Positions 23,769 to 64,000 are shown, counted from the stretch's first letter. The stretch is DNA of 64,000 bases from Psammoneis japonica (GCA_008632985.1 QPGO01000053.1:372001-436000); one strand, 5' to 3'. The notes: generated from the sequence alone by a model not told the origin. A program made the numbers and translations.

Positions 23769-24003
23769 AGTCACGACTCAATGTCATTCTGGTCGCATCT
23801 CACGACTGCAACCCAGACTCAGATTTTCTCTTCGAAACAATTGGCTCATCACAAAATCGATTCAAACAGAAGCAACGACATTCGTCATAATTTTCTAGAC
23901 AACGACTTTCAACAAGCGTCTGTTTACCTCTGTCGCTGTTCATGTTGCCACCAACCTCCGAGGTCTTGTCCATCCTGCTCAGCTGTGGGACTGCATCTCG
24001 ACT
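23769..24003 (+). repeat. LTR copy 1
   Basis: agtcacgact...catctcgact, 235 bp, near-identical to copies 2 and 3. Confidence 0.95.
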
Positions 24004-24071
24004 GGTTGTAGAGACCAATTTACGCGTTGACGAGAGCTCCTGACCGAGTCATCATCACGGTTGAGAGGGAG

Positions 24072-24306
24072 AGTCACGACTCAACGTCATTCTGGTCGCA
24101 TCTCACGACTGCAACCCAGACTCAGATTTTCTCTTCGAAATAATTAGCTCATCACAAAATCGATTCAAACAGAAGCAACGACATTCGTCATAATTTTCTA
24201 GACAACGACTTTCAACAAGCGTCTGTTTACCTCTGTCGCTGTTCACATTGCCACCAACCTCCGAGGTCTTGTCCATCCTACTCAGCTGCAGGACTGCACC
24301 TCAACT
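24072..24306 (+). repeat. LTR copy 2
   Basis: agtcacgact...cacctcaact, 235 bp. Confidence 0.95.
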
Positions 24307-24468
24307 GGTCACAGAGACCAATTCACGCGTTGACGAGAGCTCCTGACCGAGTCATCGTCACGGACGCTTTCGGTTTTTGATTTTGAAGCAAACCCGGGAA
24401 ATAGCTGAGTCTCTCTCGCTTCTCTCGTCTTCACTCTAACAAGAACCTCCCATGCTGCACTCTCTGTC

Positions 24469-27400
24469 ATGGCTGCCATCGATCCAGATGTTCTGGCAAA
24501 GGCGTTTGCCGATGCAATGGCCGCCAACGCCATGGCGGCCGCTCCTCCGGCTCCAACCAAGCCGTCACGTGGTGGAATTCACCCAACCCACGGGGTTTAC
24601 ATTGGTGGTTCCAAACTCAACAACAACTGCGAACAATCCAACGACAGAACCTACCGATTCGCCTCTCAGCGCCGTCATCCCAAGGCTCTCGACTCGACAG
24701 AACGATCTCTCCGCGATCAACAAGCTTCCGCAATGACTTCCAAGTTCAACGGTCGACTTGAGATTTCGGACGGTCCCATCAACGAGCTTGACAAGGACCA
24801 TTTCGTCAAGACTGTTCGAGATCTAGTAGAAGCCCACGGTCAGCAGACGTTCTACCATGTCAAGGACAGCGACGACAAGGTTCAACATGTCTTCGACCAT
24901 CTTCACGAGTTCACTGTGACCGATCTCGTGAACGAGTACACGGTTTGGGAAAGCAGCCACCGATGACGCCAAGTACGACGAGATCGAGCTCGACGACATC
25001 GGGCTCTCTCAACTTCTCGTTCACTCAAGAATCACTGACACCTTTCGCGAGAAAATCGAGACCAAGTTCAACCATCTTTTGGACTGCCAAGACTGCCCTG
25101 GATCTGTTCTGTTCATGATGGCTCTCGACACTTGCAATGCTGGCGCTCTAACGGACATTGAGACGGCTGAGAAGCAGCTAGAAGACCTTAGTTTGGTTGA
25201 CTATCCTGGCGAGGATTGCACGGACTTTGCTGCCGAAGCTCTTCGCATCGTGAAAATTGTGCAGACCGACTGCGCGCTTCCGGCGAACACAAGCTCCAAG
25301 CTGCTCCACAAGATCTCCTCTGCGTCCTCTGAATGCTTCAATCGCCGAGTCTACAACAAGCTCGACGACGTCAAGGCTATGGAACGCAAGTGCCGCCTCA
25401 AGAATCCTGCTGACATCGTGTCCGACAGCGATTGCAAAACGCTCGGACCGGTCGGTGTCATTGCGTGGATTCAAGAGCAACACAACGAACTCGTGAAGGA
25501 CGGGGAATGGCCTGCATTAGTCGCCAAGCTACCCGAGAGCAATCTTTCGACTGCGGACAACCCTGGGAAGACGAAGCACTGTTGTGGTTGTGGTCTCAAG
25601 GGGCACACCAAGAAGACGTGTCCGAAGTGCAACGCCAAACCGCCGCGCGACGATCCTCCTCCCAATCCGCCGCCTGCAGACAACCCTTCCAAGAAGAAGA
25701 GGCGACCCATCGCTGCCTGGCGCACTAAATTTGACGGAGAAACGAAGAAGGATAAGAATGGCAAGGAATGGAAGTGGTGTGCCACGTGCACGGCGAAGGG
25801 TGCCGACAAACCTGGAATCTGCCAGAAGCACTCTACCGCGGAACACACCGACGACCGCAGGCAACCTCCCAAGGAGACCCCAGCCAGGAATTTGTCTTCC
25901 GTTGCTGATCTGGACAGTGGCGTGCCCATGGGTCCGCCCGCTCAGACTGCCAAGGCACCAGAGGGAGACGAATCCGACCCCAACGAGTTGGTTTTCACGG
26001 GAATGTGGTGCGCAGCTACGGATCCCGTTGCCGACCCAGATTTCTGTTCCGCCCCTGTCACCACTGCAATTGTTGTTACTCCGGCTTCTTTGGCCGAGAG
26101 GGAGAGCGATGCAGTCATTAGCACTGAGGTGGTTTGCATCGAAACGAGCCCACCTGCACTCACCTCAGTCGTGGATCCAGTCGTGTCTCCCATCGTGGTT
26201 GAGACTGTCACTCCCGAAGACGCCGATGACTTCTACGAACACTCCGACGCTTTCTCTGCCTTTGAAAACGAACCACCGGCTATTGAGTTGTTTCCGGCCT
26301 CGAAGCTGCACTCTGTCAAGCATCCAGATGAGTTCTTTGACGCTCCCGCACATTTGACTGACATGCTGTCAGACGACACCAAGTTGGATCTCATCCTTGA
26401 ACACGACGTACACTTTGAAGACGCACACTACGACTTGCCTCCGTGTGTTACGCATCGTGGCTTCGATTTCTACGATCCAGAGGTCCTGGATGCGGATGAT
26501 TGTCACGAGGACGTCGAAGACGAGCCCACTTCGCGTCGCTCACTCTTGGGTCGAGTCAAGCCACTCACACTCTGGCTCGCCGCCATGTTTTGGGAAACGG
26601 CACTGCATCTTTGCTTTGCTCCGATCCCATGCATCCCTCGAGCTCTACGCCGCCAGCGCAAACTCCCAACTTTGCACGGGTTTCCAGCCTCCTGGATGGT
26701 CCCATCCGTTGCAGTGATGGCATGGTCAGCAGTTTACGCCGGTCAACAGCCCGAGCATCCATTCTCGAACGCACCAAGTCGTTTTTCGACCGCCAGCTCT
26801 CAAGTCTACCACATTGTGGAAGAGCTAGATGACCGGATAGTGTTGGACACGGGGTCACTGTTCGAACATCACAGGATCAAAGGCACGCAAGCACTCGCCG
26901 AGTTTGTCGCGCGCCATCCGTCACACGCACTGAGCACTCGTCTCAAGGCCTGCTGGGAGAGCCCAGAAGTAGCTGAACGGTCTGATGCGATGGACGAATC
27001 AGCCTTCTTTGATGCCTGTGAGGAACTGGAACCTCTCGACGACCAGAAGCAATTCTTTGACGCTCTTGAGGACTTCAGCCCGGATTTCTTCCGGTTTGAC
27101 GAGCTCTGTCTGCCGCATCATGTCGTGGACACCACCCATTTTCAAGATCCTGTGGAACCATTGGAGGAAGCAAGTGTCAGACCAGTCGTCTGCAATGCCT
27201 CCACCATCCAACTGCTCACCGGACAATCACAAGCCGACCTCCTTGCATCCGATCCGCAGGCACTCATCGGTCTGTCGGACGAGGCTCTCACGGTCGTCAT
27301 GGACACTGGTGCCACGTTAGCCATTGCCCCCGACAAAGCTGATTTTACGGGGCCTGTGACTGTTCCCAAGAAACCCTTACAGATCAATGGGATTGCCAAC

Positions 27401-30400
27401 GGTCTCACCATCCAGGGCACCGGTCCGGTTGCGTGGGTGTTCACAACGCCGAGTGGGGCTACCATCCAACTGAACACCATGGCATGCTACGTCCCTGGAG
27501 CCCGTCAGCGCCTGCCATCGCCTCAACGCCTCTTCAACGAAGAGAAGGGGGTACGTGGGAAGTGTGAGGGCGATGAAGCCACTTTCCATTTACACATTGA
27601 CGGGACAGGCAAGTTGGTCGTGCCACATCATCCATCAAGCCACTTGCCCATTGCGTCGATGACCAAGGGCGCATCTGCCGCTCCTCAAGTGAACCTTCAG
27701 ATCCTTGACGAGGAGAATCGAAACCTCACGGCAGGCCAAAAGCTTCTTCTCGAAATGCACGCCCGTTTTGGCCATTTGAACTTTGGTCGCGTCCAAGCAC
27801 TTCTCCGCGCAGTTCCGTTCCTTTCGAACCGTTTCAAGTCTGCAGCAAAGTGTGACCACCCAAGATGCGAGGCACGCGAATGTGCTAAAGGTCATGGACG
27901 CTCTCTTGGATCTACTCACAAGTCGACCGTCCCTGAACGCGACGGGGCCCTTCGAGCTGACCATCTTCGACCGGGTCAGGCTGTCAGCATTGATCATTTT
28001 GCGTCGCGCCTTTTGGGCCGCACCTTCGACTCTTGTGGCAAAGCCACGTCCAAGCAATTCAAGGGCGGTTGCATCTTTGTCGACCACGCCTCTGGCTATG
28101 TCCAGGTCGAGCACCAACTGGGTTTCTCCGCTGTTGAGACGACACGCGCGAAGCAAGCGTTTGAGAAACATGCTTTGGACCACGGGGTCATCGTCCAAGA
28201 ATTTCTTGCCGATGGTGGCGCTTTCAAGGCCAACGCTTTTGTACAACACATGCGAGAACATGAACAACGTCTCCGTTTTTGTGGAACCAACGCCCATCAT
28301 CAGAACGGCGTCGCAGAGCGGGGCATCCGCAGCATCTCCAACATGGCGAGAGCGATGTTGCTTCATGCATCAATCCACTGGAAGGGGGGAATTGACAGCT
28401 CCCTGTGGCCCATGGCAGTTTCTCATGCCACGCACATCTACAATGTCACCCCAAATTCCAAAGGACATTGCCCAGCGGACATTTTCACCGGTTCGACAGT
28501 GCCAAGACATCGGTTGCGCAACATTCACACATGGGGATGTCCAGCGTACGTACTTGACCCGACCCTCGCTTCCGGGAAGAAGCTCCCGCGTTGGGAGCCT
28601 CGCACTCGTTGCGCTTTGTTCGTGGGACTCAGTGCCATCCATTCCAGTGAGGTTCCTTTGGTCCTCAATCTTCAAACTGGAAGTGTTGCACCTCAGCATC
28701 ATGTGGTCTTTGACGATCTCTTCGCCACCGCACCATCAATCGAGAGGGAGACGGATCCACCTGATCACTGGGAACACTTGTGCCTCAACCAATCGACATG
28801 CATCCCTCTGGAGAAGGATCAGGCAGTTCATTTGCACGATGAGTGGCTTGCCCCTCCAGAGCGTCAACGTAAAGAACGAGAACCAGCCAGAGCAACACGC
28901 ATTCGCGGGCATTTTGAGCCTGCTCCATCGATTGCTGTGCCGGATTCACCCACTTCTCGCGACGACGTTGCCGATCGAGTCGCACCTGCGACTCAGCAGC
29001 CAACACCACCAGTCCCACCTGCGACTCAAACTCCTGCAGACTCTACGGACTCTACGCCAATTCAGCCACCTGAACCTCAAGACAGCAACGGACTTCCGCC
29101 ACCCGAAGCGCCGACGGAACCAACAGCTCCTCCCCCAGTCGAGACACCTCCCATGACGAATCCAGAGGGAGCACCAGGGCTGCGACGGTCTTCACGGTCA
29201 ACCAAGGGACAGCTCAACTCTGCCAAGTTTGTAGATGAGGTCTGCTTCAGCTCCGTCGAGGAAATGCCGCTGCCGATTGGACACGAGGCTCAACTGGCGC
29301 ATCTGGCGACTCTCGAGACGGATTTGGACAGTGGTGCCATCAATGTCGGCGATCCATGAGCCTGCGCAGCTAGTGAGAAAACCAAGGACCCTGACATGCC
29401 TTCGTCACACAATGCTCTGAAAGGTCCGGATGCCGACGAATGGATTGAGGCGATGAAAATTGAAGTCAACGCACTCATGCATCGTCCAGCCTGGAAAGCA
29501 GTCGAGCGTCAGCCGCGTGTGAATGCACTTCCAGGCACATGGGCACTGGAGCTCAAGAGACTCCCAGATGGAACCCCTCTCAAGTGTGAGGCCCGACACT
29601 GCGTCCGCGGTGATTTGCAGAAAGAAGGAGTCGACCACTTCGAAACCTGCGCGCCGGTTGTGCAGTGGTCCAGTGCCCGACTCATGCTCACTGCGGCATT
29701 AAAGGAGGGATGGACTGCACGACAGGTGGACTGCACCACAGCCTTTTGCCAAGCTGACATCGCCGAGGAAGTTTGCACAACACCGCCGAAGGGATTTGCG
29801 CCAAGGTCGGGACTCAACATGGTTCTCAAACTTTTGAAAGGACCACACGGCCTAAAACAGTCTCCCAAGGGCTTCTGCGAGAAGTTACGAGCTGGTTTAA
29901 CCGAGCGCGGATGGGTGCCTTCAGCCATAGATCCCTGTTTGTATTTCAAAGAGGGCATGATGTGTGTGGTGCACGTCAACGACACCGTTTTTGCTGGAGC
30001 TTCAGCTGAAGCTCTAGAAGCCGAAATTCGCAAGTTAGGAGTCTCCGACGACGAACATCGCCACGCATTTGAACTTAGAGACGAAGGAGAAGTCGGCAAC
30101 TTTCTCGGCATCAAGATCGAAAAGCTCTCCGAGGGTCGATTTCTGCTCACTCAACCCGGTCTAATTGACAAGGTCCTGCGCACCGCACAGATGCAGGATT
30201 GCAATGGAGCATCTGCTCCAGCTCTACCTGCGGCCATTGGTGCCGACACGGACGGCCTGCCTTTTGATGAACCCTGCGATTGTCGCTCAGTTGTTGGAAT
30301 GTTGATGCACTTGGCAGCGAACAGCCGGCCAGACATTGCACATGCCACACATCAAGTGGCTCGATTCTCGTTTGCGCCCCGAGCGTCCCACGCTGCTGCA

Positions 30401-31060
30401 GTGAAGCGGATGCTCCGACACCTCAAAGCAACTGCTGCTGAAGGTCTCATTCTCAAGCCTGCGCAAGATCATCGAGTTGATTGCCACGTCGATTCTGACT
30501 TCGTGGGGTCATTTGGTGTGGAAGATGGTCAAGACCCAGTTTCTGTCAAGTCCAGGACTGGACACCTCATCTGCTGCGCCGGCTGCCCGCTTGTCTGGGT
30601 GTCCAAGCTGCAGACTCTTGCAGCATTGTCAACTGTGGAAGCGGAATGTGTCGCACTTTCTCAAGCCATGCGCGATCTCATCCCTGTTCGTGAAGTTCTC
30701 AAGGAGCTCAACCACCACGTGTTTGGAAAGTCTGACCGCCAAAACCCCATCACGACTCACTCCAAGGCTTTTGAGCTCGCAACCCAAGGCACCGATGACT
30801 CGCCTGTAGAGCAGAATGTCCTGCCTGCGTCCATTGTGTGCGAAGATGACTCCGCGTGCCTCAAGTTCGCACGTGTGCCCAAGTTGTCTCCGCGAACCAA
30901 ACACATCGGCATCCCGCACCACTGGTTTGGGACTAAAGTCGAACAATTGGAGATCGACATCCAACCTGTCAGCACTCTAGAGCAACCAGCCGATCAGTTC
31001 ACGAAGGGACTGCGGACCGATGCGTTCCGTGCGGCTAGAAAGGCTCTTGTGGGCTGGTGA
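24469..31060 (+). pseudogene. Copia Gag-Pol polyprotein, inactivated
   Basis: Zn knuckle CCGCGLKGHTKKTC, protease VMDTGAT, integrase (HARFGH..VSIDH..IFVDHASG..HHQNGVAER), RT and RNase H. Frameshift near 24940, premature TGA at 29357 (CGA>TGA), catalytic YVDD read as HVND at 29972-29983. Confidence 0.93.
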
Positions 31061-31081
31061 GCTCTCTCGGTTGAGAGGGAG

Positions 31082-31316
31082 AGTCACGACTCAACGTCAT
31101 TCTGGTCGCATCTCACGACTGCAACCCAGACTCAGATTTTCTCTTCGAAACAATTAGCTCATCACAAAATCGATTCAAACAGAAGCAACGACATTCGTCA
31201 TAATTTTCTAGACAATGACTTTCAACAAGCGTCTGTTTGCCTCTGTCGCTGTTCACATTGCCACCAACCTCCGAGGTCTTGTCCATCCTGCTCAGCTGCA
31301 GGACTGCATCTCGACT
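31082..31316 (+). repeat. LTR copy 3 (3' LTR)
   Basis: agtcacgact...catctcgact, 235 bp, follows the PPT. Confidence 0.95.
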
Positions 31317-31745
31317 ACAGTGCATGCAACAGGTGTGCCCAACATGTTGTTTGTTGATCAAAAGATCTGCAAGGCAAACCACAGCCACTGCAGCAGTCAG
31401 GACAAGTGCAACGAGCAGCACAGGAAGCCTTGTTGGGTTCCCTTTGGGTGACTTTGACTTGCCAATTCAACACTTGCTCAAAAGAGCTGAGTGCAAGTTG
31501 AGCGCATGAAAAACCTTCCACACGTCACATCAGCGCAAGATCTTTTCCCCCCCTCCGCATCTTCTTTTCGGTTGCTCATCGTTCGCACGACTGTCATTGT
31601 TCGGACTTGCTCCAACAGCACATGCCACACCAGTGCGGCAGGGCTCCACTCAAACAAATGGAGACAGCTGAAAAATTGGCCTCAATCCAGACAAATTGCT
31701 TTGGTCACCAAGCACTTGTTGCTTGACAGTTGCTTGGTTTTTTTT

Positions 31746-38073: not shown

Positions 38074-39421
38074 AGGTCCAGAGCTCAACTCTTCACCACA
38101 CCACCCATCTCCCAGTGCCTCTTGGGCAGGCATCCTCTGCTCCTGGCCATGACATCATCAACAAAATGAATCAAAGCAATCAAACCATTTGGGTGTGCCT
38201 GCACAGCAGCTGAACTCTGCTCTCTGGTTGTTCATCCACACAAGGAGTGCCACAATGCCGCACATGGCATTTCTTTCTGAGGTGGATCTGGCACTGATTC
38301 CATGTGATGCCATGTAAAATGCCACATTTTGCACATGAAGAAGGTGTGCCGGCAATTGATTTGTGATTCCTGGCTGCAAAATGTCATTTCTCATGCACTC
38401 AGGAGCCTTCCAATGCTGCTGCCTGTTGCTTTTCCCTTGTGCCAACCACAAGCCCCCATGCCCTGTGGTGTTTGATGCTTTGCTGTCAATGGCAAAACAG
38501 CTGGGAATCATTGGAAAAATGGTGGTGCCACCTTGGATGCAAGTGCCACATTCATGCCACATTTGGGACAAATGTGGCATTTGTGTGGATGGCCACCTTG
38601 TGGGGCCTGCATGCAAGTTCCCACCTCAAGCAGAGTGAGCAAGCAAGGTGCCTGTCAGACCTTGAAGCACAAGCACCAACTGCACTTGAGGAGTGCTGAT
38701 CGCACTGTCCAGAAGGGGGCAGAGATGTTGTGAAGCAATGCAAAATGGTCTTGTGATGGCCTTCCCAGCAGATTGTCTTTTGTGAAGACAGCAGACATGC
38801 CAGCTGTGCCAGGCAGTGGAGCAGAAGTGTGCCAGCTTTGCCTGGCAGTGGAGCAGATGTGTGACACCCAGATGTCCACTGTCTTTGCAAGTGGAACTTT
38901 GCTGTGTGCTTTTAATCTGACTGAGTGGGTTTGCTCAGCTTCGCTTCAGAGCAAATCGCAGTGCAGGTGACCAAAGTGCACCAGTGTGAGCTTCTCCACA
39001 ACACAACACTGTCAATTTTTCTTTTTTCTTGAAGTTGAAATGGCAGTGCAGCCACCTCTACAACTTGCAGAATTTCCAAGCTGGAGCTTGGTCACTCTTT
39101 GAAAATCTCCGAGCTGGGGCTTAGTCTCTCTGAAAATCTGGACAAAAAACTCAAACCCAGTTTTAAGTGCCGCTGCACCTTTGCCTGGCAACACCGGCAC
39201 CAGCCAACCCACACTTCCAGCACACCCTGCAGCTGCTAGAATTGTCTCTGGCTGCAGCTACTAGAATTGTCTCTGAAAATCTGGACAATTATCACAGGGT
39301 ACCGTGATGATTTAGGGATAAAGAATTGTTGCCAAGAACAACACACATTTCTACAAAACTACTTTCTCTCAATCTCTAGAAAGTCTACGTGTAGTAGATA
39401 GCGAGATCAGCTTAATCGCAA

Positions 39422-41251
39422 TCATGCAATTTTCGTCATACGAATGTTGTAGAGTCTCATTTTGCGCAGAGCTTCGACGTTGCTGCATTCCAAGAGTGTT
39501 AAACCAATTGTTCGTCGGCCCCTTTTCAATTTCATATCTCCCAGTTCGTGAGTTTCCTCCCCTGTTTCAAATACTTTCGTAAGGTTCAACTTCTTTCCAA
39601 CATAAAGCCGGACTCTCGTACCCGGAGGCACCTTGTACGCATGGAGGGAGATCCTGTATGTTGCGGTACGAAGCACGTGTACCTTCAATTCCTGGACAGC
39701 GCCAATCTCTAAAAAATTGGTGTTGTCCCACCCTGCTCTGTTTTCGCCTCGCATACGGAAGGTATATTCCATTTCAATGTATGGTCGATTTACACCTGGG
39801 AGACCAATCAACTGAACCGGGGTCTTCCATGCATGTGGGTCGGAGCGGACTTTTTTCAATGCTTTGTTATATTTTCTTTCCATTTCTTGAAATTTCCCAG
39901 GCATGGTTCCGAGGAGGTTGAGTTTTTGAAGAGGATCTTTAGCGAGATCGAATAGATAGAATTTTCCTTTGTCGTTCACAATCACCCAATCTCCATCGAC
40001 AAAGGCAGAGCTGCGTTTATTCATTGGCCAAGATTTCTTCGTAAATCGGTACTGCCAGCCGTCGTCCGCCAAAAAAGATTCAAGCGGACCAGGAGTAATC
40101 GTCAGGAAACTGCGTTCGGCACGCCACTTAGCATTGTCTCTTACAAAGAACCGACGTAGGTTCCTGCCATCCAACGAGGGTACATCTGACTTGCGGGTAT
40201 GGTCTGCAAGACGGAGAATGGTAGGATAAATATCCATCACTACCGTCACTTCGCTTACTTGTTTGGGTATGAATTTGGAAGGGCAGTAAATGCCTAAGCG
40301 GTTTCTCAACCCACCTTCAAAACAAGTTCCTTTGTTTCTGAGGAATCCTGTTGGGTTACGTGCAGCCACCTCTTTGTCGTTCATCACATATGTTTCCCCT
40401 GTTGTCTTAAAAAATCCATCCTGATTTTGCTTGAGAGTATCTGTCTTGAATTCCTGGCCATTATCTCCTAGAAAGAAAACAATAGTATTGTCCGCAAGCT
40501 CATTGTCTTTCAGCGCCGTAAGGATTCGACCAACTTGGGTATCGAGTTGTTCCATCATGCCGAGAAACATCGCATAGTGTTCGCCGATGCCCATTTTCAT
40601 ATATTTTTTCTGCAGGGCTTCAGGGCAAAGCCATGGTTGATGCGGTTGAGAATAAGGAAGATAGAGGAAGAAGGGATCATCCTTGTGTGTTTCGATGAAA
40701 TCGATCCCTTTGTCAGTAACACGCTCAACTTGCCAACCATCTTCAATCCCTGTGTATTTTCCATTGCGAGCAAATGGCGATTTGAAGTGCTCGTAGCGTC
40801 CAAAGCCACGGTTGTCTTCGCTCCAAAGCTCCCATGTTTCATTGAAACCACGGCGATGGGGCAATTCGGCGTCTGAACTACCAAGATTCCACTTTCCCAC
40901 CATTCCTGTCACATAACCTGCATCCTGAAGGGCTTGGCCTAGCAAATATTCGTCGGGGTGAGGCGCTTCGGCTCCATATCCTACCGCGGCTGTTCCTGTG
41001 CGCATGAAGTTCCTGCCGGTCAAGAGGGACGACCGGGTGGGGGTGCATGAGGAATGCGTGTAAAAACGGGTGAACTGTACGCCTTCTGTCATCAACCTAT
41101 CCAGGTTTGGAGTTTGTAATGGTGGCTGGCGGAAGCCGTAATCATCGAAACCTTGATCATCGGTCATGATCAAAATGAAATTTGGTTTCTGTTTCTGCCC
41201 ATGGGTTGTGACGACAGCCACCAAGAAGAAACATGTTATGGTGATGATCAT
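39422..41251 (-). CDS. Arylsulfatase (formylglycine-dependent S1 sulfatase), secreted
   Basis: 609-aa intact intronless ORF. KPNFILIMTDDQG, CTPTRSSLLTGR (CxPxR), GKWNLG, GDNG and KGTCFEGGLR motifs. Signal peptide. Confidence 0.95.
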   Translation of the reverse strand: MIITITCFFLVAVVTTHGQKQKPNFILIMTDDQGFDDYGFRQPPLQTPNLDRLMTEGVQFTRFYTHSSCTPTRSSLLTGRNFMRTGTAAVGYGAEAPHPDEYLLGQALQDAGYVTGMVGKWNLGSSDAELPHRRGFNETWELWSEDNRGFGRYEHFKSPFARNGKYTGIEDGWQVERVTDKGIDFIETHKDDPFFLYLPYSQPHQPWLCPEALQKKYMKMGIGEHYAMFLGMMEQLDTQVGRILTALKDNELADNTIVFFLGDNGQEFKTDTLKQNQDGFFKTTGETYVMNDKEVAARNPTGFLRNKGTCFEGGLRNRLGIYCPSKFIPKQVSEVTVVMDIYPTILRLADHTRKSDVPSLDGRNLRRFFVRDNAKWRAERSFLTITPGPLESFLADDGWQYRFTKKSWPMNKRSSAFVDGDWVIVNDKGKFYLFDLAKDPLQKLNLLGTMPGKFQEMERKYNKALKKVRSDPHAWKTPVQLIGLPGVNRPYIEMEYTFRMRGENRAGWDNTNFLEIGAVQELKVHVLRTATYRISLHAYKVPPGTRVRLYVGKKLNLTKVFETGEETHELGDMKLKRGRRTIGLTLLECSNVEALRKMRLYNIRMTKIA

Positions 41252-41398
41252 TGCTCACTACAGGATGAAACTTGGTCCCTTTTTTTCGCTAACATTCAGC
41301 ACAACAAAGGTTTTTTTTCTGTTGCTTCAAAGACCTGTGACATTGTTTCTCCAAGCAACAACATTATTTTTTGCAAAAATGACCAGAAATGACTCCAA

Positions 41399-44300
41399 TG
41401 TCCCTGAACGGTCTTGACACATACGGTACATACAGTGCCGGTGCTGTAAGTTGTCCACGTACCGCACCGGTGCGCACGAACACGAAAAATTGACTGCAGC
41501 CACAGTGTTCGGGTTTTTCTGTAACAGAATTTCTAACTTCGAGGTGTCAGCAATCCCGGTCATTCGAATCTCCCGAATCTTGCAGCCGCTGACGCAGTTA
41601 TGACGTAGAAGTTTACTTCACTCTTCCCTTCCGCGATGATTCATGCAAATGCTTTGATTCGCAATCCATCTGTCATGCCGAAGTCAATGTGGCAAAATGT
41701 GCCGAGTGTCAATCCTTTCAAATGCATGAGGCGCTCTTTGCATTGCAACAGCACTCTCATTCACATGAACTTGTGCAACAAGAAAAGGGCCAAAAAATCT
41801 GGCTTCCAATTTGTTGGCAGGATCGTCTGTCTTGATCAAAATTTGCTGCCCGACACGACAATCGAAAAAGCGTCTTTTGAGATTTTGCTGGTGCAAGTTG
41901 TCATCAGTCAACCCTTGTTGATGACTCCGAGTGGTGACCAAATCTCCAATGAGAGGCAAATCAAGAAACACGTCTCTCTGGCAGATGAGAGCTCCTGGCG
42001 AAATTCTTAAAACTCTCGAGGTGGCGCATCGCAGACTGTGCACAGTTGCAGCCAATGCATCATCAACAATCTGTTGAGCTTGTGCACATTGTGAGAAGGA
42101 TGTCCTCTGATTGCAGCTTCAATGACGTTGCCAGCAGACTGATGCATTCTCTCACAAATGGCGCTGGCTTGAGGATTTCTGGTGGGGGTGGTTTCCACAC
42201 CCTCAATTGCTGCTGTCGCCAATGGAATCTGAAATGGTTTGCCAACAAATTCACCACCCTTGTTGTCAATGCAGCAGTCCAGCCTTGGACATCTGGCCAA
42301 CCAACAATTGGCAAACTTCATCTGCGCATGATCTGAAGTCTTGTTGTTGACGCGAACCAGTTCAACGAGGTCAGAAACAGGGTCAATCGCAGTCAACATG
42401 TCAAACTCAACTTCCTGCTCTTGCACTCACATTTTCCAAGGACCAGTTGAATCAACAGCAACTTCATCCCAAGGAACCAAAGGAGCTTCTCTTGGTGGCA
42501 AATGGCTCCATCGAACTCCCCAAAGCTTGTTCCTTTGGCGCACATTGCAGCGACAATTTTCAGCCAATCGTCGCAGCACCAGATGATGACAATGTGTGCA
42601 AATCAAACAACAAAGCTTCTGTGTGCCACAATGCCCTGAGACTTGACAATGTCGCCTGACAACAGGAGCCAACAAGGCTGTTGGCAAAGTGATTTTCCAG
42701 CCATTCTCCTGTGTGCATTGAAATTCCACTGCCGCTCTTGACTCAGCTCTTGATCTTCAAACTGAAACCTTTGCACTGCATCTCTTCTGGACTCAGACAG
42801 TGCAAAAGGCAATTCACCAATTCTTGATCTTGAACAGTGCAAAACAAGGTGCTCAATTCAGGGCCCAAATTTTCTTTGAGCGACTCATCTTCTGGAGCCA
42901 TGGCAGTTGGAGGAACCAAAAAATCAACAATGGCGCCTTTCAACTCCACTCTAGAACTCTTCCCTTTCACAGTTTTCTCAACATGAGAAAATCATGAAAA
43001 GAAGTCAGCCAGAATGTTCTCCTTGCCTTCAAGACATCTGAACTTGGGTCCAAATTCTTCAAGAAAAAGGCGCCAACAAAGTGCTTGTTGCACACTCAGC
43101 ATCTTGAAGGTGAAGTGCTTGTCGTGATCCATGTGGGCTGTTGTGTCAGCTCCCAACAACACAGATTGAAACTCTTTAAAACAAAGAACTGCAACAAACA
43201 TTTCTTTTTCCACAGTGGAGCAATTCTTCTGAGCCACACTGAGTTTTGGGGGCCAACATGCAACCAGCTTGCCGCTCTGAGTGATGACTGTGCCAAGCTG
43301 ACAATCGCTCGCATCTGTGCAAATCTGAAAAGGAAGGTTGTGATCAGGGCAAGCAAGTGAAATGTCATCCACAACAATGTGAGTTCTTTCACAGGCATGG
43401 ACTTGCCCAACCACTTGACTGTCCTTGATGAGAAATTTACATGGATTCCTGCCTTGGTCAAAAAATCTGTGATCCAAGAATCACGTTGCATTGACACAGC
43501 ATTTGAAACACCAGCGCTTTTTGAAAATCAACACTTCTTGACATGTCAAATTCAGGCAGTGCAATTGTCGAGTCAGGACCAAACTTCTTCTTGTTCCCAC
43601 CAGAATCCATGTCCTTGGCCTTGCACTTCTTGAGCTCATCTTCAGGCTTGCCAAAGCTCTTCTGATCAGCAAATCCTTTTTCATTGGACACATGCTGGTC
43701 CATGTCTTCCAAGGAATTGGTGCCAACATCTTTTCCCATGTGCACACAATTCTGCTTCCATGTCATTGGCACTCCTGTGAACACACCATTTTTGGTCTGT
43801 TGCTCATTGAGCAAAGGCTCAGTGTCTGGCAACTTGTCAGCACAACGTGACATCTGAGTCATCCTGCCAGCATGCTCATGAGGAGAATCACCAAGAGGTC
43901 CAGAAAAGTTTTCAAAAATTCAAACATTGTGTCACATGCTTGACAATTGCAGTGTCACTGACAAAAGCATGCAACCTCAATGTCAAACCTGGCCATTGTC
44001 CAAACAGTTTCTGTGACACCCGAAACCAGATTGCTCCACATGTCTTGAGAATTGTCTTCCAATGCTTCTTCAAAATGAGCAAACTTTTCAGGTCCTTCAT
44101 CACAATCCAGATGCTCGGCACAGTTCTTAAAGCATTCTGCAGTGTGGAGCAAGCACTTGATGCCGCACTTGCCAGTGAACTGAGGGCACATTTTCTGCTT
44201 CTTGGTGCCATCATCACAGTTTTGTGCGAGCTTCCCTTTGTCCAAATCTCCGTGTTTGAAGGTTGGTTTGCTGCACACAAAGCATGGTGCTCTCAACGAG

Positions 44301-44580
44301 GCTCTCACCAAATGCAACATTGACCTTGCGTTTGAAGCAAAGAGTGCCACAGCAAAGAAAAGAGAAGGAAAGAACAAGACACAGTGTGATCACATTGAAT
44401 GGTCTTGACAAGTTGTCCATGAATGCACTCTAAAAATTGCAAGGAAAAGCTGTGATTGACTGCAGCCACAGTGCTTGGGTTTCTGTCACAGAGTTTTTTT
44501 GAGGTGTCAACAATCCTGGTCATTCAAATCTCCCAAATCTTGCAGCCGCCCACACAGCTGTGATGCAGAAGTTTGCTTCA
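41399..44580 (-). mobile_element. Ty3/Gypsy LTR retrotransposon 1, internally deleted
   Basis: LTR-like copies at about 41399-41620 and 44395-44580. PPT at 41621-41633. Integrase (PWDEVAVD..NPQASAICERMH) and RNase H ([21 protein letters not shown]) remnants. RT is missing. Confidence 0.85.
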
Positions 44581-47460
44581 ATCCCTGAATGGTCCATGTG
44601 ACTGTCACTGAACACTTTCTAAAATTGTGAGAAAAGACTGCAAGTGAGGTCTCAAACCTTGCTTGCATTTCTGTCATGGAGCCTTCCACGGAACGTTTTT
44701 TCTGACACTGAATGTCCACAGGACTTTCTGCAGATGCCACAGTCCTGGTCACTTCAATCTTTCAAAGAATCTCCACTTGATGATGCAAGCATGACATGGA
44801 AGTTCACTTCACTCTTCCCTTGCGGTCAACTTGAAGTTCTGAATCACAATCTGACCATGGTGCAGTTGGTGTGGTGAGATGCGCCAAATGTTGATTTGCT
44901 CAAACACATGAGGTGCTCTTTGCAAGATGATGTTTCCATTCACATGAACTTGTGCAACAGCAAAAGGGGCCAAAAGCTTGGGCCTCCAACTTGGTGGGAT
45001 GATCCGTCTCAATCAAGACTTGCTGCCCAACTTGACAGTCGAGAAAGCATCTCTTGAGATTTTGCCGATGCAAGTTGTCGTCAGTCAATGCTTGGCAATG
45101 ATCTTGGATGGCAGCTGGGTCCCCAATGAGTGGAAGATTGTGAACATGTCTCTTTGGCAAACCAATGCTCCTGGCAAATTTCCCAAAACTCTGGAAGTGG
45201 TGCAACGCAGACTGTGCATGGCAGCAGCCAGAGCGCCATCCACAATTTGTTGTGCCTCCACCAGGTTGTGAGGAGGATGTCCTCAAAGCATGGTTCAAAC
45301 AATGTTTGCTGCCATTTGATGCATTCTCTCACAAGTGGCATTGGCTTGGGGATTTCTTGTTGTTGTCTCCATGTCCTTGACTCTGGCTTGTGCCAGCAGC
45401 CTCTGAAATGGTTTTCCCACAAATTGCCACCTTCATCATGAATGCAGCAATTGGGTCTTGGATGTTGAGCCAGCCAACAATGGACAAACTTCATCTGCAT
45501 GTGGTTTGAGCTCTTGTTGTCAATGCAAGATGACTCAACCAGGTTGGCAACCATGTCAATCACCGTCAATGCATTAAACTCAACTTCTTCTCCTTGTGCT
45601 GTTGTTTTCCACAGACTGATCAGATCCACTGCCACTTCATCTCATGGAACCAAGGGAGCTTCTCTTGGTGGCAAATGGCCATGCCCAGCTCCTTTGAGCT
45701 TGTTCTGTTGACACATGTTGCAACAACAATTTTCAACAAGCCAATGCAGTGCCAGTTTGCAGGAATGTGCACAAATGGAGAGGTGCAGGTTTTGTGTGCT
45801 GCAGTGTCCCAGCACTTGATGATGCCAATCAACAACAGACGGCAATGAGGTTGTTGGCAAGGCAATTTTCCAATTGTTTTCTAGTGTGTTGATTCCAGGC
45901 CTCCAACAAATCAGCGGAGCTCTGCCCACACATTGCATGGGAAATTGAGTTGGGTCTCATTCCCATTCTTGATTGAGTGCTTGAAATCTTTGAATTGCAA
46001 TCTTTGGATGTCTGGACAGTTCAGTGGGTGCTGCATTTCCTCCAGAGCTGGACAATTTAAAAAACAATCCACCATCTCTGGATCTTGAATTGTGCAAAAT
46101 GGGGTGCTTGACTCCGGACCCAAGCTTTGTTCCAATGGCCATCTTCTGGTGCCAAAGCTGCCCGCAGAAGAGAAAAGTTGATGAGTTTGCCTTTTGATGA
46201 AACACATGAAGTCTTCCCTTCCATGGTTTTCTCCACACAAGGAAATCATGAAAAGAAGTCTGCAAGAACATTCTCTTTGCCTTTGATGTGTCAAAATTTT
46301 GGTGCAAATTCTTTGAGGAACAGACGTCACCATGTTCAATGTTCTGAACATCAAGTTTTCATGATCAGCTCAGACAGAAATGTCGGCTCCCAGCAACACA
46401 GACCAAAACTCTTCGAAACAAAGAACAACATGGAGCATTTCCTTTTCCATGGTTGAGCAGCTCTTTTGTGTGCTGTTGAGTTTGTGTGGGACCAACATGT
46501 GATCAACTTGTGATTCTGGGTTGTTGCTGCTCCCAGTTGACAATCACTTGCATCTGCACAAATTTGAAAAGGAAGATTGTGGTCAGGAGAGGCAAGCAAT
46601 GCATCCCCTGCCATGATGGCCTTGATCTCTGCAAAAGCCTTTTGACAGGCTTGACCACTCAAACTCTTTTTTGCTGGTCAGCTCCATTGAAGGCACCAAA
46701 ACGTGTGATCGGCAAGGCCACACATCATGACAGCAAGTGACAGCCCCAACAAAGGATCACAACCAAGTGTTGTTCTTCAGAGGTGCAAGTCTGCACACTG
46801 CCTCCACCTTTTTCCAGATTTTGACCCCTCCTGGTGTCATCCAATGACCAAGAAAATTGGTTTCTTGAACAGCCCATTTGCATTTGAGCGAGTTGACTTT
46901 CAAGCTGTTCTTTTCAAGTCATTGGAGCACTGCACTGATCATGACCAAGTGTTCCAACCAAGACTGCTGGGAGTGGATTCCAACATTGTTGACAAAGCAA
47001 TCGACATCCATGTTGTGCATTGCTTGTTCATGGTTGATTGTGCAACATCTGGAGCCGGTTTCAGCCCCATCGCCATTCGACAATGTTGAAATTTGCTGTG
47101 CGGAGTGACGATGGTGCACAATTCCTTAGATGACTCCTCGTTCAACTCCAAATGGTGGCAAAACACCATCAAATCTAACTTGGCAAAGTGCTTGCAGCCC
47201 ATTCTGTGCTTGAGAACATCTTGCACCCTTGGTGATGGACAAACCAGGCACTTCAAAGCTTTGTTGAGTTCTTGAAAATCGGGTGCCCATTGCACTCGTT
47301 GATCCTTTTTGGGAATGACAAATGAAGGAGAAGCCCACTCAGCAGGACCACAAGGTCTCAGCACTCCCAACTTTGCAAGATGTTGGAGCTCTTTTTTGAA
47401 TGTCTCTTCCTGCATCTTGGGAACAGAGTGAGGTTGAGCATGAACTGGAGTGGCCTCCGG
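44581..47460 (-). mobile_element. Ty3/Gypsy LTR retrotransposon 2 (related family), 5'-truncated
   Basis: 3' LTR about 44581-44811, then the same PPT (ctcttccctt). Integrase, RNase H ([13 protein letters not shown]) and RT (EWASPSFVIPKKD..DFQELNK..CTIVTP..RMAMGL..CFVNNVGI). Confidence 0.85.
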
Positions 47461-47774
47461 GTCTGTTTCTAAGTGGACAGACTTGTGTGGATGTCAACCC
47501 AAATTTCCATCAAACAGCTTTGAAAACTTGGGGACAGCACTTGTTTTGGCTCCACTTGTTGAGCCCTTGAAAGATGTTTTTGCTCTCTGATGACCTTTCC
47601 AGGTGACACTGGCTCACACTTGGCATCCAGAATTTGAGCAGTGCACACGTGGGAACAACACAATGGGCAAGCATCACATTGCCCAAATCTTCTTCTTCTG
47701 TCTTGGCACCTGCAAAAGCAAAGCAAGCACTCTCTCTGTCATCCCAAAAGACCTGTTTTTGCCGGTGATCATTG

Positions 47775-49461
47775 TCTGAGCCTTGCATGGTCTCAAGTTG
47801 TCAGGTGCACGATTTTGAGAACATGTGGCAGGTGGCAGCCACTTTGCATGATGCTGGTTTTGAGTCATGCAAGGCTGATCTAGATGTCTGGATGAGGGCT
47901 GCAGTTGAGCTGGATGGCTTCAAGCACTGGAAACATGCACTTGTCCATGCAGATGATTTGTTGTGCATCTCCCATGAACCCCAAAAGGTTGTGGATTACA
48001 TGAGCTCTGGGTGCACATTGAAGGGCGGAAGTGTCTGCAAACTGGAAGAGTGTCTGGGCACCCAGATCAGAAAGTGCCAGTTGTCTGATGTGGATGGCAA
48101 GACACACTGGACCATGTCCTCTGACTTGCATGTTAAAAGGGCACTGGTTGATGTTGAGCTGGAGCTCAAGAGGACAGACAGGCACCTTCCAACAAAAGCA
48201 TCAACATCCTTGAGCTTGGGACACAGGCATGAACTGGATGGCTGACCAGAGTTGAGTGCCAAAGTGGCCAACTGCTGCCAAGGCCTTGTTGGTGTGCTCC
48301 GATGGACAGTTGAACTTGGATGAGTTGACATCTTTGTTGCCATCTCACTCATGTCCTCCTGCCTTGCAGCACCACAAGTTGGACACCTGGATGAGGCACT
48401 CCATGTCTTTGCATGCTTGAAGGCTTGCTCCAAGTCTTTGCCAGTGTTCTGCTTTTGACAAGAGTTGGTTTGCCAAGTGCAACTGGGAAGAACATTGCCC
48501 TGGCATGGCTGAACCACTGCCACTGAACATGCCAGAGACATGTGGGAATGGGGCAGTCACTGTTTTGTCAACACGGATCATGCCGCATGCCATGTGATGC
48601 GCAGGTCTTGCACCGGGATCTTGACATTCATCCAGCAAGTGCCCATCTTGCACTGCTCCAAATGGCTTGACACCACAGAGTCCTCTGCTTTTGGGTCCAA
48701 GTTCATTGCAATGAAGACTTTGGTGGAGCAGATTGAAGCTTTGTGGAACAAGCTTCGGATGCTTGGAATCCCCATGAATGGGGCCACTGACATCTTTTGT
48801 GACAATGAAGCTGTCTTCAAGAACTCAACCAGGCTGGAGTCCACATTGAAGAAAAAGCATGATGCAATTGCCTGTCACAGGACTCTTGAGGCACAAGCCG
48901 CAGGAATTTTGTGCATTGCTTGGGAAGACAGATGCACAAATCTTGCGGATGTGCTGACCAAGTTGTCACCTGGACTGAAGCTCTGGGAGATCACATCACA
49001 AGTCATGTTTTGTGGTGAATCCCAAAATGGGACAAACTGAATGGATTCACCACTTGGGTGTGGTTTTCCCTCCCCCAAAATTAAAACATCACCCTGGAAC
49101 AGGGCAGCATCAGGTTGCATTTGTCTGTAAATCTGGCTCAAGCAGAGCCAGCGTCAGTTCAAGTGGACTGAACAAATTCTGACACACTGCCACGGATGTG
49201 GGCAGTTGTTTGCCATTGATGATTGGCCTGCTGTTGCTCATTTGGTGGCCCCAGCAGCACAATCTCTCACAACTCTAGAACCTGTTGATGCTGTTCAACA
49301 CTCTGTCTTGTCTGTCACCCAATTCTGGCTGTCATGATAGCATTCATTCATGGTTTTGATGACTTTGAAATGGTGGAACACTTGAGGGTTGCGCGCTGGA
49401 GTTTTTGACCCCCAGACCCATTTCAGTGCATGCCCACATGTCTGTGGAATGTGCCAAAATG
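47775..49461 (+). mobile_element. Copia RT-RNase H 3' remnant plus ~420-bp tail, duplicated at 62298-63983
   Basis: ALHGLK, HALVHADDLLCISH, FVNTDHA..RRSCTG..ESSAFGSKF..FCDNEAV..LKKKH..NLADVLTK. Confidence 0.85.
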
Positions 49462-52900: not shown

Positions 52901-53150
52901 CGTGTGCACAAGTTCGGAATTGAATTCTTGAAGACTGTTGAGGAAGCCACAGAGAAGACAACAGAACGGGGACCAACTTTTGGTTTGAGGCCATAAGAAA
53001 GGAAATGTGGAACGTCATGCCTGTGCTCAAGTTCCGTGACGATGACACTGTCCTGGTCGGGCACAAGCATGTTGATTGTCACATGGTCTTTGATGTCAAG
53101 AGCACCTTCCAATGCAAAGCAAGGTTTGTGGCCGGAGGCCATCAAACCAA
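49970..53150 (+). mobile_element. Copia (CoDi-like) gag-PR-IN and start of RT, heavily degenerate
   Basis: Protease LDSCTDTCAVGSNF, integrase (LVSDG..TPCSPWQN), TTMGWNLQVKWK..SWVPLQDLKESN..EPAFNWWV and CHMVFDVK..KARFVAGGH. Confidence 0.85.
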
Positions 53151-54953
53151 TCACAATGTCACAATGCACACTGCATGCAAGTGGCAGCGCCATCATCGAC
53201 CATGATGCCGTCGTCTTTCCTTTGAGCTAGGGCCCCACCCAAGAGAGATTGAATCGACTGGACGGTGCTGCAAAGTATGTAATTTGCATTGTTTTCGCTT
53301 TCGAGCTTGCTGTTACAGCACTGCGTATGCGCTCCGAAATTGTGTGTTTTTTGATGCCGGGCAGTTTGGTGCATTCAAATTTGAGTCGGTTTTTGTGCAA
53401 GCACGTGAGATTGCATCTCCGTTTCCTTTTTTTTCAACCAACAATCTCACCCGCACGTTTCTGTGATAGATTTGTTCTCTTTAGGACAATGCTGTGGGCT
53501 AAACAACCCACGATGATGCCAAAAAAGTAGATGGAAACCATTGCTCGTGGATTGCGCTGCTCTGGAATTCCTACAACAATTTTACGGGTGATTAGTAGTA
53601 ACACTACTTGGGCAATAATATCATGGAAGCGATCACTTTGTGTTGGCCTCGTGTTGGGGATAAAATTTTGAGAGTTTGGGGCTTGCGACATTTGATGCAA
53701 GAAATTTTTAAGGAGAAAGCACCGCACTCTTATAAGAGGAGATTCGCCCCGTATTTGAAAAAGTTTTGTCAAGATCCCATGGAAAGTTAGGTCACTGATG
53801 ATGCCAAACTGACTTTTTTTAAAATTGACTGTAGCTGTGTTATTACTGCTACGAAAAACCGGCGCAACAGACGGAGAAGAATTGGCAACTCAACGATTTG
53901 CTCGATGCCAGTCAAGTTGTCGTTTTTGTTTGCTCGCGCCAAGAAATTTAATCGCTTGTTGGCTGCGCAGCATTTGCATCCATGCCGATCTATTCCAGAA
54001 CAAGAAGTGCACCTCGAAATGCAAAAGAGTGCTGCTAGATTGAAGAGCTGGCGGGAATGGGGATGGGTAACGTAGGAGTGCTGGGAATGATTAGGGTGGT
54101 AGTGCCGGGATATTGAATTGGGTATTAGTAAAAGCCGGCAACTGGATTGAATTGACATACAAGTGGATACAAGGCAAAGAAACATGGTAGTAGCAGTGCA
54201 TGTATGTATGGGAAGCTACACTAGAGAAACAAGTATCAAGAACATAGAGAGACGGGGACGGGCAGTTTTTAAAGTAAAAGGTGACAAAGAAACGTAGGCT
54301 CTGCCTGCAAAGTGGACCCCCACTTTACACATTCAAGGGTAGGCGAATCTCATCAAGCTCTGCAAGGTAGAACACTGTATTTAAAATGTTACACAAACCA
54401 TTCCTAGAGTCGCTACGACGACATTCAAAAACCGTTCGACGCCGCGTGCCGATACCCCCGGCTGGACCATACGCGATTGCTACAAAAAGGTGTAATACCG
54501 GCTGGACCACACGATTGGTACATATATGCCAAGTCGCGTCTCTACGGAAAAATCCGACGTCTATCAAAGCATTCTGATCCAACGTAGAGGAAATTCTGGG
54601 TTGCTTCCCTGTGTGCTAAGAATATTTTGAGAAAGCTCGTGGTGAGCGTGTCGATCAGATGGAAAGAACTTCAGCTATCTTCCAATGTAAAAAACGGTAT
54701 CGCCGTCAAAAACAACTTTCCCATCCTATCCTAGACCCTGCTTTTTTCAATCAGCACACTTCTGTAGGAGGACTTGACGCCTCCGCTCCTTTCTGCAAAC
54801 AAAGTAGGCGACACATTCGTTGATCGACCGTGAACGCCGACAGGATCTATGTGGTCTTCCCCATTCCCCGCCGTCGAGAATATGATTCCTTAGCATTTAC
54901 TACCTGAGACTGATAAAAAAAGCTAGACCCCATATATGTGAGAAAATAAGAAA

Positions 54954-63983: not shown

Positions 63984-64000
63984 GCCAACGGTCCAAATAA

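Follow-up and report, generated by a model that had tools for sequence, protein, structure and literature searches.

Mutational defences against repeated DNA in eukaryotes are known mainly as C to T changes, as in repeat-induced point mutation (RIP), APOBEC editing and the decay of 5-methylcytosine (5mC). In RIP the host kills repeats, once they are inserted, by hypermutation in the form of transitions at particular dinucleotides; pairing between repeats during the sexual cycle sets it off. The available text of a recent preprint describes TpA-specific hypermutation in B. natans, seen de novo in integrated DNA of nucleocytoplasmic large DNA viruses (NCLDV) as well as of virophages, and proposes ADAT2 as a candidate agent (Mettrop et al., bioRxiv 10.64898/2026.01.13.699255). 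Here we analysed a window, meaning the whole 64,000-nt stretch G000:C51:372001-436000 of a 91-Mb eukaryotic assembly, in which Gypsy and Copia retrotransposons have exchanged most of their TA dinucleotides for TG or CA. We are highly confident of this pattern and of its polarity, from TA to TG or CA.

The TpA profile of the window is bimodal. Blocks of mobile elements have TpA observed/expected (o/e) ratios of 0.0-0.1, CpG o/e mostly of 0.1-0.5 and CA/TG ratios of ~1.8, and gene islands have TpA o/e of 0.4-0.9 with CpG near 1; an intact sulfatase gene sits between converted blocks. The erasure is limited to mobile or foreign domains and spares genes, the exception being some host-type gene relics that lie inside blocks and are converted too. 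Two such TpA-erased relics elsewhere in the assembly, one AAA-ATPase-like (L057:8193-9677) and one EMC3-like (L067:3552-4076), indicate that the target is the domain and not transposon sequence alone. The named homologues of the Gypsy pol protein are diatom proteins (Pseudictyota, Cyclotella and Mayamaea; 52-56% identity), suggesting a diatom host.

A first-pass annotation had drawn attention to three ends of long terminal repeats (LTRs). The 21-mers that it quoted are present, ending at 41620, 44580 and 44811, and the steps TA 41606, TA 41614 and CG 41604 of the first copy, at the edge of the sulfatase gene island, read CA in one inner copy and TG in the other. TA 41599, just 5' of the quoted string, shows the same split. 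The three ends had been taken as one LTR occurring three times. This holds for the edge LTR and the first inner copy (inner1), which are the 3' and 5' LTRs of a single minus-strand, internally deleted Gypsy element, el1, but not for the second inner copy (inner2), which we rejected as a third copy because it belongs to an element of a sister family, el2, ~70% identical to the el1 family and with its own partner LTR beyond the window. The limits given for the LTRs were corrected to those in Table 1, 41400-41404 and 44581-44585 being target-site copies. Three LTR ends alone do not prove a direction. The proposal that the copy bearing TA and CG is ancestral was thus right on thin evidence, and was borne out by conserved tyrosine columns, mutually exclusive intermediates, LTR pairs and target-site copies.

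The tyrosine test used 13 columns in which 90% or more of 120 outgroup pol proteins have tyrosine. At the 102 copy-sites in these columns we found cysteine 64 times, histidine 31 times, tyrosine seven times and no other residue, so that 95 of 102 are now Cys or His; every copy examined has lost conserved tyrosines. Histidine was kept at 52 of 55 copy-sites. The Copia element of the window has His or Cys in all 12 conserved tyrosine columns and keeps 16 of 17 arginine columns. Among nine aligned elements, 457 columns contain both CA and TG; 85 of them keep only TA as the intermediate, 168 only CG and 5 both (p 1e-14). The four diagnostic sites of the LTR end behave likewise in 22 family LTRs, each showing both products and only one intermediate: 41599 has TA in 13 copies, CA in 1, TG in 7 and another state in 1; 41604 has CG in 6, CA in 4 and TG in 12; 41606 has TA in 5, CA in 16 and TG in 1; and 41614 has TA in 4, CA in 4, TG in 13 and another state in 1.

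LTR partners are identical at insertion. The edge LTR and inner1 differ at ten pyrimidine-purine (YR) steps, at all of which the edge copy has TA (three) or CG (seven), and at eight positions outside such steps, besides an insert of ~30 nt. In a second pair, L005/L014, 8 of 9 TA and 5 of 10 CG sites changed, all in one direction, and 2 of 100 other columns differ; by rough arithmetic, which gives a relative rate only, TA changed ~200-fold faster than the other columns. Target-site copies point the same way: the copy at 41400-41404, the only one of three to be preceded by T, has G where the other two have A. This could be a single G to A change if el1 came first, which the context makes less likely. 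At seven other insertion sites the 5-bp copies are identical in three cases and differ once in four, by a TA to TG change (one), loss of CG (two) or a transversion (one). CA to TA was found at only 0.006-0.013 per copy-site, among the slowest transitions, and hence CA and TG are end states; A to G outside TA ran at 0.008-0.058 per copy-site.

Loss of TA and loss of CG, which the first-pass annotation had taken together, are separate processes. The Copia element has lost its tyrosines and kept its arginines, with CpG at ~0.9; L033 keeps 20 of 125 TA and 161 of 269 CG sites, and L036 keeps 27 of 62 TA and 37 of 158 CG sites. The two also differ in context, as judged by comparing 107 low and 114 high 1-kb windows (7 windows with N left out). 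TA survival ranges with the flanking bases from 0 (ATAT) to 0.46 (TTAA), and an additive per-strand fit by the base 3' of the A gives 2.5 for T, 1.8 for C, 0.9 for G and 0.35 for A (R2 0.96), an order that recurs in the aligned copies with A again the weakest. CG survival, at 0.38-0.60 across ten contexts, shows little flank preference. Both strands are hit independently at TA: aligned copies gave no strand-coordinated TA runs at four distances (same-strand fraction 0.489 against a null of 0.484; 0.43-0.49 against 0.43-0.48 over the four distances), with a slight sense-strand excess of TG over CA products (479 and 412, p 0.03). CG sites showed a weak same-strand excess at up to 30 columns (0.51 against 0.47, p 0.003, uncorrected over 16 tests). 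Collectively these data establish the direction of the TpA process, its timing after insertion, its action at the level of DNA, its strand independence and its context.

As the best explanation overall we favour, with somewhat better than even confidence, a model where two mutational processes act after insertion in silenced, mobile-element-rich domains and both end in CA or TG, one being of a TadA/ADAT type and the other 5mC decay. The first is a hypermutation of A:T to G:C at TpA, independent on the two strands, preferring TAT and TAC to TAG and TAG to TAA, and running roughly at least 100-fold over background. Its agent would be a TadA/ADAT2-type adenine deaminase, brought or given access to silenced chromatin and acting by way of A to inosine to G; we put the chances of an adenine deaminase as the TpA agent at about even, by analogy with TadA. 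According to the accessible part of PMC12265680, TadA acts naturally on UACG, and variants obtained by evolution favour TA. The requirement for a 5' T and the pyrimidine-favoured 3' side seen here resemble UACG, and the B. natans preprint likewise puts forward ADAT2. The second process is a context-flat CpG decay, which would come about through deamination of 5mC set by DNMT5-type methylation. The assembly has 27 matches to PF00145 (C5-methyltransferase). In Phaeodactylum, the available text of PMC9998398 reports that loss of DNMT5 depletes DNA methylation and de-represses young transposons. The TpA process probably works as a genome defence, given that every examined copy has lost conserved tyrosines.

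Several points weigh against the enzymatic part of this model. Sequence cannot separate a damaged A from a damaged opposite T, and TAT rather than TAC is the preferred context in our data. The assembly holds an ADAT2-like gene with Asn in the GCxN motif, which we take to match the residue stressed in the B. natans preprint and which is not discriminating; ADAT2 is, to our knowledge, to be expected in any eukaryote, so its presence is uninformative. The nine PF00383 matches in the assembly look like ordinary housekeeping deaminases by motif reading. A special deaminase was thus not recognised, none of the nine being unusual, and the four PF00383 frames that were scanned have no chromatin- or DNA-binding domain, other deaminase families not having been searched for. 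A separate frame at L073:313-1785 on the minus strand carries a deaminase domain joined with a 2OG-Fe(II) oxygenase and probably belongs to nucleobase metabolism. Deamination of N6-methyladenine (6mA) was not favoured as a route, because the accessible text of a eukaryotic 6mA analysis places the mark at ApT and reports only 5mC in P. tricornutum (bioRxiv 10.1101/2024.10.28.620566). Three loci with C5-methyltransferase matches (L162, L163 and L164, on contigs C301 and C297) are themselves TpA-erased (o/e 0.07-0.10) with CpG at ~0.7, and several other such matches carry internal stops.

Of the alternatives, error-prone synthesis of the Pol eta/iota type, in which G is placed opposite T when silenced domains are repaired or replicated late, survives best, although we consider it unlikely. 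It would account for the restriction to domains and the strand independence with no new enzyme, and A to G at AA is slightly raised (0.027-0.058 at NTT, read on the opposite strand, against 0.013-0.032 at NTG), which resembles the WA signature. The scale, however, does not fit: 55-95% of TA sites are converted, depending on the copy, against 3-6% for AA to AG, and transversions are rare, with 41 against 470 transitions in a young pair. Nor is the loss of TA tied to that of CG in the Copia element, L033 and L036, and it is hence not a by-product of 5mC repair patches.

Rather less likely still is a route in which thymine is the target, through a miscoding modification of T at TpA or a biased repair of T:G to C:G. 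It predicts an identical sequence record, and a domain rich in 5mC would favour T:G repair enzymes, in a genome with many C5-methyltransferase matches; bacterial very-short-patch repair offers a precedent, as it depletes CTAG. But CTAG is one of the contexts that convert more slowly in our data (survival 0.15), and T:G repair should mainly restore TG to CG, a change that is not raised (0.013-0.032 at NTG). It also relies on rare replication errors, which are hard to fit to 8 of 9 conversions against a background of ~1%.

We then come to position relative to genes, an effect that we consider quite probable. The edge LTR keeps 3 of 8 TA and all 9 CG sites, and inner1 keeps 1 of 10 TA and none of 11 CG sites; the edge copy, said in the first-pass annotation to have escaped, did so for CG and only in part for TA. 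Along el1, the initial 300 bp retain TA at 4 of 12 sites and the remainder at 3 of 83, and for CG the figures are 30 of 68 over the initial 1.2 kb and 13 of 103 beyond it. Among same-age LTR pairs, the two with strongly different flanks differ as predicted and the five with similar flanks do not. Across 21 LTRs (L016, at a contig end, left out), the four lying less than 600 bp from a long open reading frame (ORF) keep 19 of 34 TA and 38 of 42 CG sites, against 18 of 149 and 85 of 184 in those farther away (p 0.002 for TA, 0.001 for CG). The LTR alignment left out L009 (a duplicate of L008), L002 (left end missing) and L025-L028 (partial), and 86 of 113 flanking ORFs were sent to Pfam. ORF distance was used in place of flank TpA, which was rejected as a position proxy because it is circular (rho 0.68). 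In the favoured model, DNA within ~0.3-0.5 kb of genes would lie outside the silenced domain, which would explain why the edge LTR kept all its CG and part of its TA when its same-age partner lost both.

Other observations speak against so simple a role for position. Among these LTRs, TA retention and gene distance are not significantly correlated by rank (rho -0.32, p 0.15), the 600-bp cut-off was picked post hoc, and three of the four nearby ORFs have no Pfam match and were chosen partly by composition. TA survives at 1 of 9 and 0 of 8 sites in two LTRs that lie ~950 bp from genes with Pfam support, and L029 and L031, far from genes, keep TA throughout (50 of 133 and 52 of 145), which suggests age or timing. 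At its four converted TA sites the edge LTR has the same product as inner1, and the donor may already have been edited there. Hence the further claim that position rather than sequence decides holds only in part: there is support for a position effect, but TA survival depends strongly on the flanking bases, and in some elements distant from genes TA is retained from end to end. Position (within ~0.3-0.5 kb of genes), context and age all contribute.

The asymmetry of el1 could also be explained with chromatin position irrelevant, if selection on the sulfatase promoter kept TA and CG in the edge LTR or if the copies differ in age. The edge LTR lies 153 nt from the sulfatase start codon, and the retention of TA throughout L029 and L031, together with a little-converted Gypsy pol at L054:5607-8618, indicates that age or timing matters. 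We nevertheless find this improbable. Both LTRs of one element have the same age, the edge LTR is otherwise unconserved, with the non-YR differences and insert described above, and the fading of CG retention over 1.2 kb takes place inside dead integrase sequence; L005 shows the same asymmetry at another locus. The L054 element is an open 1004-aa frame with TpA at 0.60 and CpG at 0.92 in the same genome.

Editing of element RNA by an ADAR-like enzyme, fixed by reverse transcription, is very improbable. ADAR favours U before A, as the accessible text of bioRxiv 10.64898/2026.01.13.699255 notes, and the slight sense-strand excess would fit, but in any one copy the two strands carry almost as many changes as each other, conversion extends to host-type gene relics, and the differences between LTR partners and between host target-site copies largely refute it. 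Last, TA as a derived state, made in the edge copy by RIP-like CA to TA or TG to TA changes, is practically excluded by the tyrosine columns, where Tyr is the outgroup state, by the presence of both CA and TG at each site and by the slowness of CA to TA, even though most family copies read CA or TG at three of the four diagnostic sites. The first-pass annotation would have let such a majority overturn the ancestry of TA; that test is invalid, as with conversion near saturation the family majority is the converted state, and we dismissed the majority state as ancestor for the same reason.

The features of the locus are collected in Table 1.

Table 1. Features of the el1/el2 locus and of the Copia and sulfatase comparisons, in window coordinates.
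Feature	Position	Strand	Basis and remarks
Copia element, TA erased, CG largely kept (control)	23769..31373	+	TpA o/e 0.12-0.37, CpG o/e 0.8-1.2 over 24001-31000
Intact sulfatase gene	39422..41251	-	Pfam Sulfatase E 1.4e-49; 23 Tyr in 610 aa; TpA o/e 0.43-0.67
Left target-site copy (41400-41404) and preceding T (41399)	41399..41404	+	T-G here, A in two other copies
Edge LTR, 3' LTR of el1, 216 nt, TG..CA	41405..41620	-	22-copy LTR alignment
Four diagnostic sites (TA 41599, CG 41604, TA 41606, TA 41614)	41599..41615	+	States in 22 copies
el1 polypurine tract	41621..41632	-	Sequence; same tract after 3' LTRs of family copies
el1 internal part, deleted broken Gypsy	41633..44395	-	~80% identical to 5.3-kb family copies, two deletions; RT_RNaseH 42995-43477
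inner1, 5' LTR of el1	44396..44580	-	LTR alignment
Middle target-site copy, common to el1 and el2	44581..44585	+	Window sequence and LTR comparison
inner2, 3' LTR of sister-family Gypsy el2	44586..44811	-	83% to partner; elsewhere only partial matches at 68-75%
el2 tract and pol	44812..47750	-	70% to family element over 3058 columns; RVT_1 match below cut-off

The Gypsy hallmarks are present (TG..CA LTRs, a polypurine tract and a 5-bp target duplication). The pol protein P0001 has the Ty3/Gypsy order of RVT_1 followed by RT_RNaseH, and its homologues also carry integrase families; downstream, on the minus strand, there is an integrase-like frame, the piece within the window having no Pfam match. 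The frame at 42007-42426 is open on both strands, the integrase-like reading being that of the minus strand. Converted blocks contain many long spurious frames, probably because TAA and TAG stops have been erased. No fewer than seven members of the el1 family are full-length. Over its first 90 nt the edge LTR matches the family only in patches, and this part includes the additional ~30 nt of GTAC-like sequence, which are missing from all other copies in the assembly; this gain and a replaced segment, at 41418-41490 and 41515-41540, occur in the edge LTR alone and are partly converted in appearance. TAC/GTA tracts like the insert occur in gene islands (TACCGTA 35 times against 14 expected) and are absent from converted blocks.

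The true partner of inner2 lies at G000:C51:437579-437806, 21 kb away beyond a nested insert of ~16.5 kb that breaks el2 at ~47750; the 5' part of el2 resumes 289 nt beyond the window end (64000). The 5-bp target is present three times, the third copy following the far LTR of el2 (L045:1726-1730). Two sister Gypsy families thus stand head to tail at one target, a double insertion. The available text of McGurk and Barbash (bioRxiv 10.1101/158386) describes the same arrangement of tandem elements with one target copy between them and three in total, there mostly for dimers of the same element among Drosophila DNA and non-LTR elements, unlike the sister Gypsy families here. The nested insert is bounded by 1.7-kb direct repeats (47761-49461 and 62285-63984, 94% identical) with Copia-like pol remains; they share most CA/TG choices and were therefore duplicated after most of the conversion. 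The insert also holds an unconverted island at ~53000-55500. A RAP/FAST-domain gene on the minus strand at 54954-56666 contains an array of 111-bp repeats, and its TpA falls from normal to ~0.1 along its length. The left LTR of the Copia control is tandemly doubled at 23769-24363 (292 nt, 95%), 10 of its 11 differing steps being YR.

Short-read contigs of run X1, assembled from one sample that may be the source sample, cover 39202-41580, 41608-41866 and 44456-46468 with 1, 2 and 6 differing letters respectively; no single listed contig spans 41581-41607. This agreement indicates that most of the edge LTR and both inner ends are not assembly artefacts. Across 41726-47280, 17 differences between assembly and short reads, each in single contigs, include six CG losses, one TA to TG (45576) and two CG gains, and may reflect either allelic variation or mistakes in the assembly.

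Outside this genome the trace was rare in the samples searched, and the searches favour unconverted copies. Converted homologues numbered 1 of 120 for Gypsy and 0 of 120 for Copia, and no TpA o/e under 0.4 turned up among 78 metagenome loci, the search patterns having partly required Tyr and being biased against converted copies. The single case, the JGI metagenome protein P0072, is a Gypsy pol 59% identical to P0001 with Cys or His at 13 of 18 conserved tyrosines, a hint, from protein sequence, that some other organism or family also has the process.

If saturating A to G change of genomic DNA is confirmed as a host process, it would be a second chemistry of mutational defence, and a natural adenine editor of double-stranded DNA would interest genome engineers. 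The polarity, the context signature and the boundary lengths obtained from LTR pairs, target copies and tyrosine codons lend themselves to comparison with candidate enzymes and with the B. natans mutations. Such genomes also mislead majority consensus, which takes the derived state, LTR-pair dating and gene prediction, as loss of TAA and TAG stops would leave long spurious frames.

Among known systems, RIP was rejected as an identity: it runs in the opposite direction, making TA from CA or TG, whereas here CA is stable and TA is lost, and its runs of one-strand changes have no counterpart at TA sites here. DNMT5 methylation of diatom transposons, as described in the available text of Hoguin et al. 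(PMC9998398), would explain CG to TG or CA but not the loss of TA. TadA/ADAT2 share the A to G change with a 5' T; judging from the accessible part of PMC12265680, the natural enzymes act on tRNA, and our data rank the 3' bases T > C > G > A. Searches aimed at TpA loss in diatoms or algae, in which coverage of subscription papers was thin, listed no diatom report, and we found the erasure described before in one report, that on B. natans, whose main text, as available, makes no mention of CpG or diatoms (bioRxiv 10.64898/2026.01.13.699255). The likeness to B. natans, on that text, is close: TpA goes to TpG or CpA on either strand, in foreign or mobile domains only and far above background, leaving clusters poor in TpA and rich in CpA and TpG. 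Our locus likewise has A:T to G:C change at TpA only, both products, confinement to mobile domains and a rate orders of magnitude above background. A host A-to-I editing of DNA at TpA across silenced domains, acting genome-wide against transposons as a kind of reverse RIP and common to rhizarians and diatoms, with TA followed by a pyrimidine before TAG and TAG before TAA, a boundary within a few hundred bases of genes and independence from CG methylation, is a tentative generalisation that we regard as possible, though short of probable. B. natans is a rhizarian with two viral regions, where the changes were caught de novo and in some lines only, and in which, in the preprint text available, TpA is still plentiful (Rho 0.45 in the NCLDV region), whereas here a diatom-type genome has Gypsy and Copia blocks near saturation (TpA o/e <0.1) and a co-located, separable loss of CpG; the measured order of 3' contexts and the gene-proximal boundary also set the present case apart.

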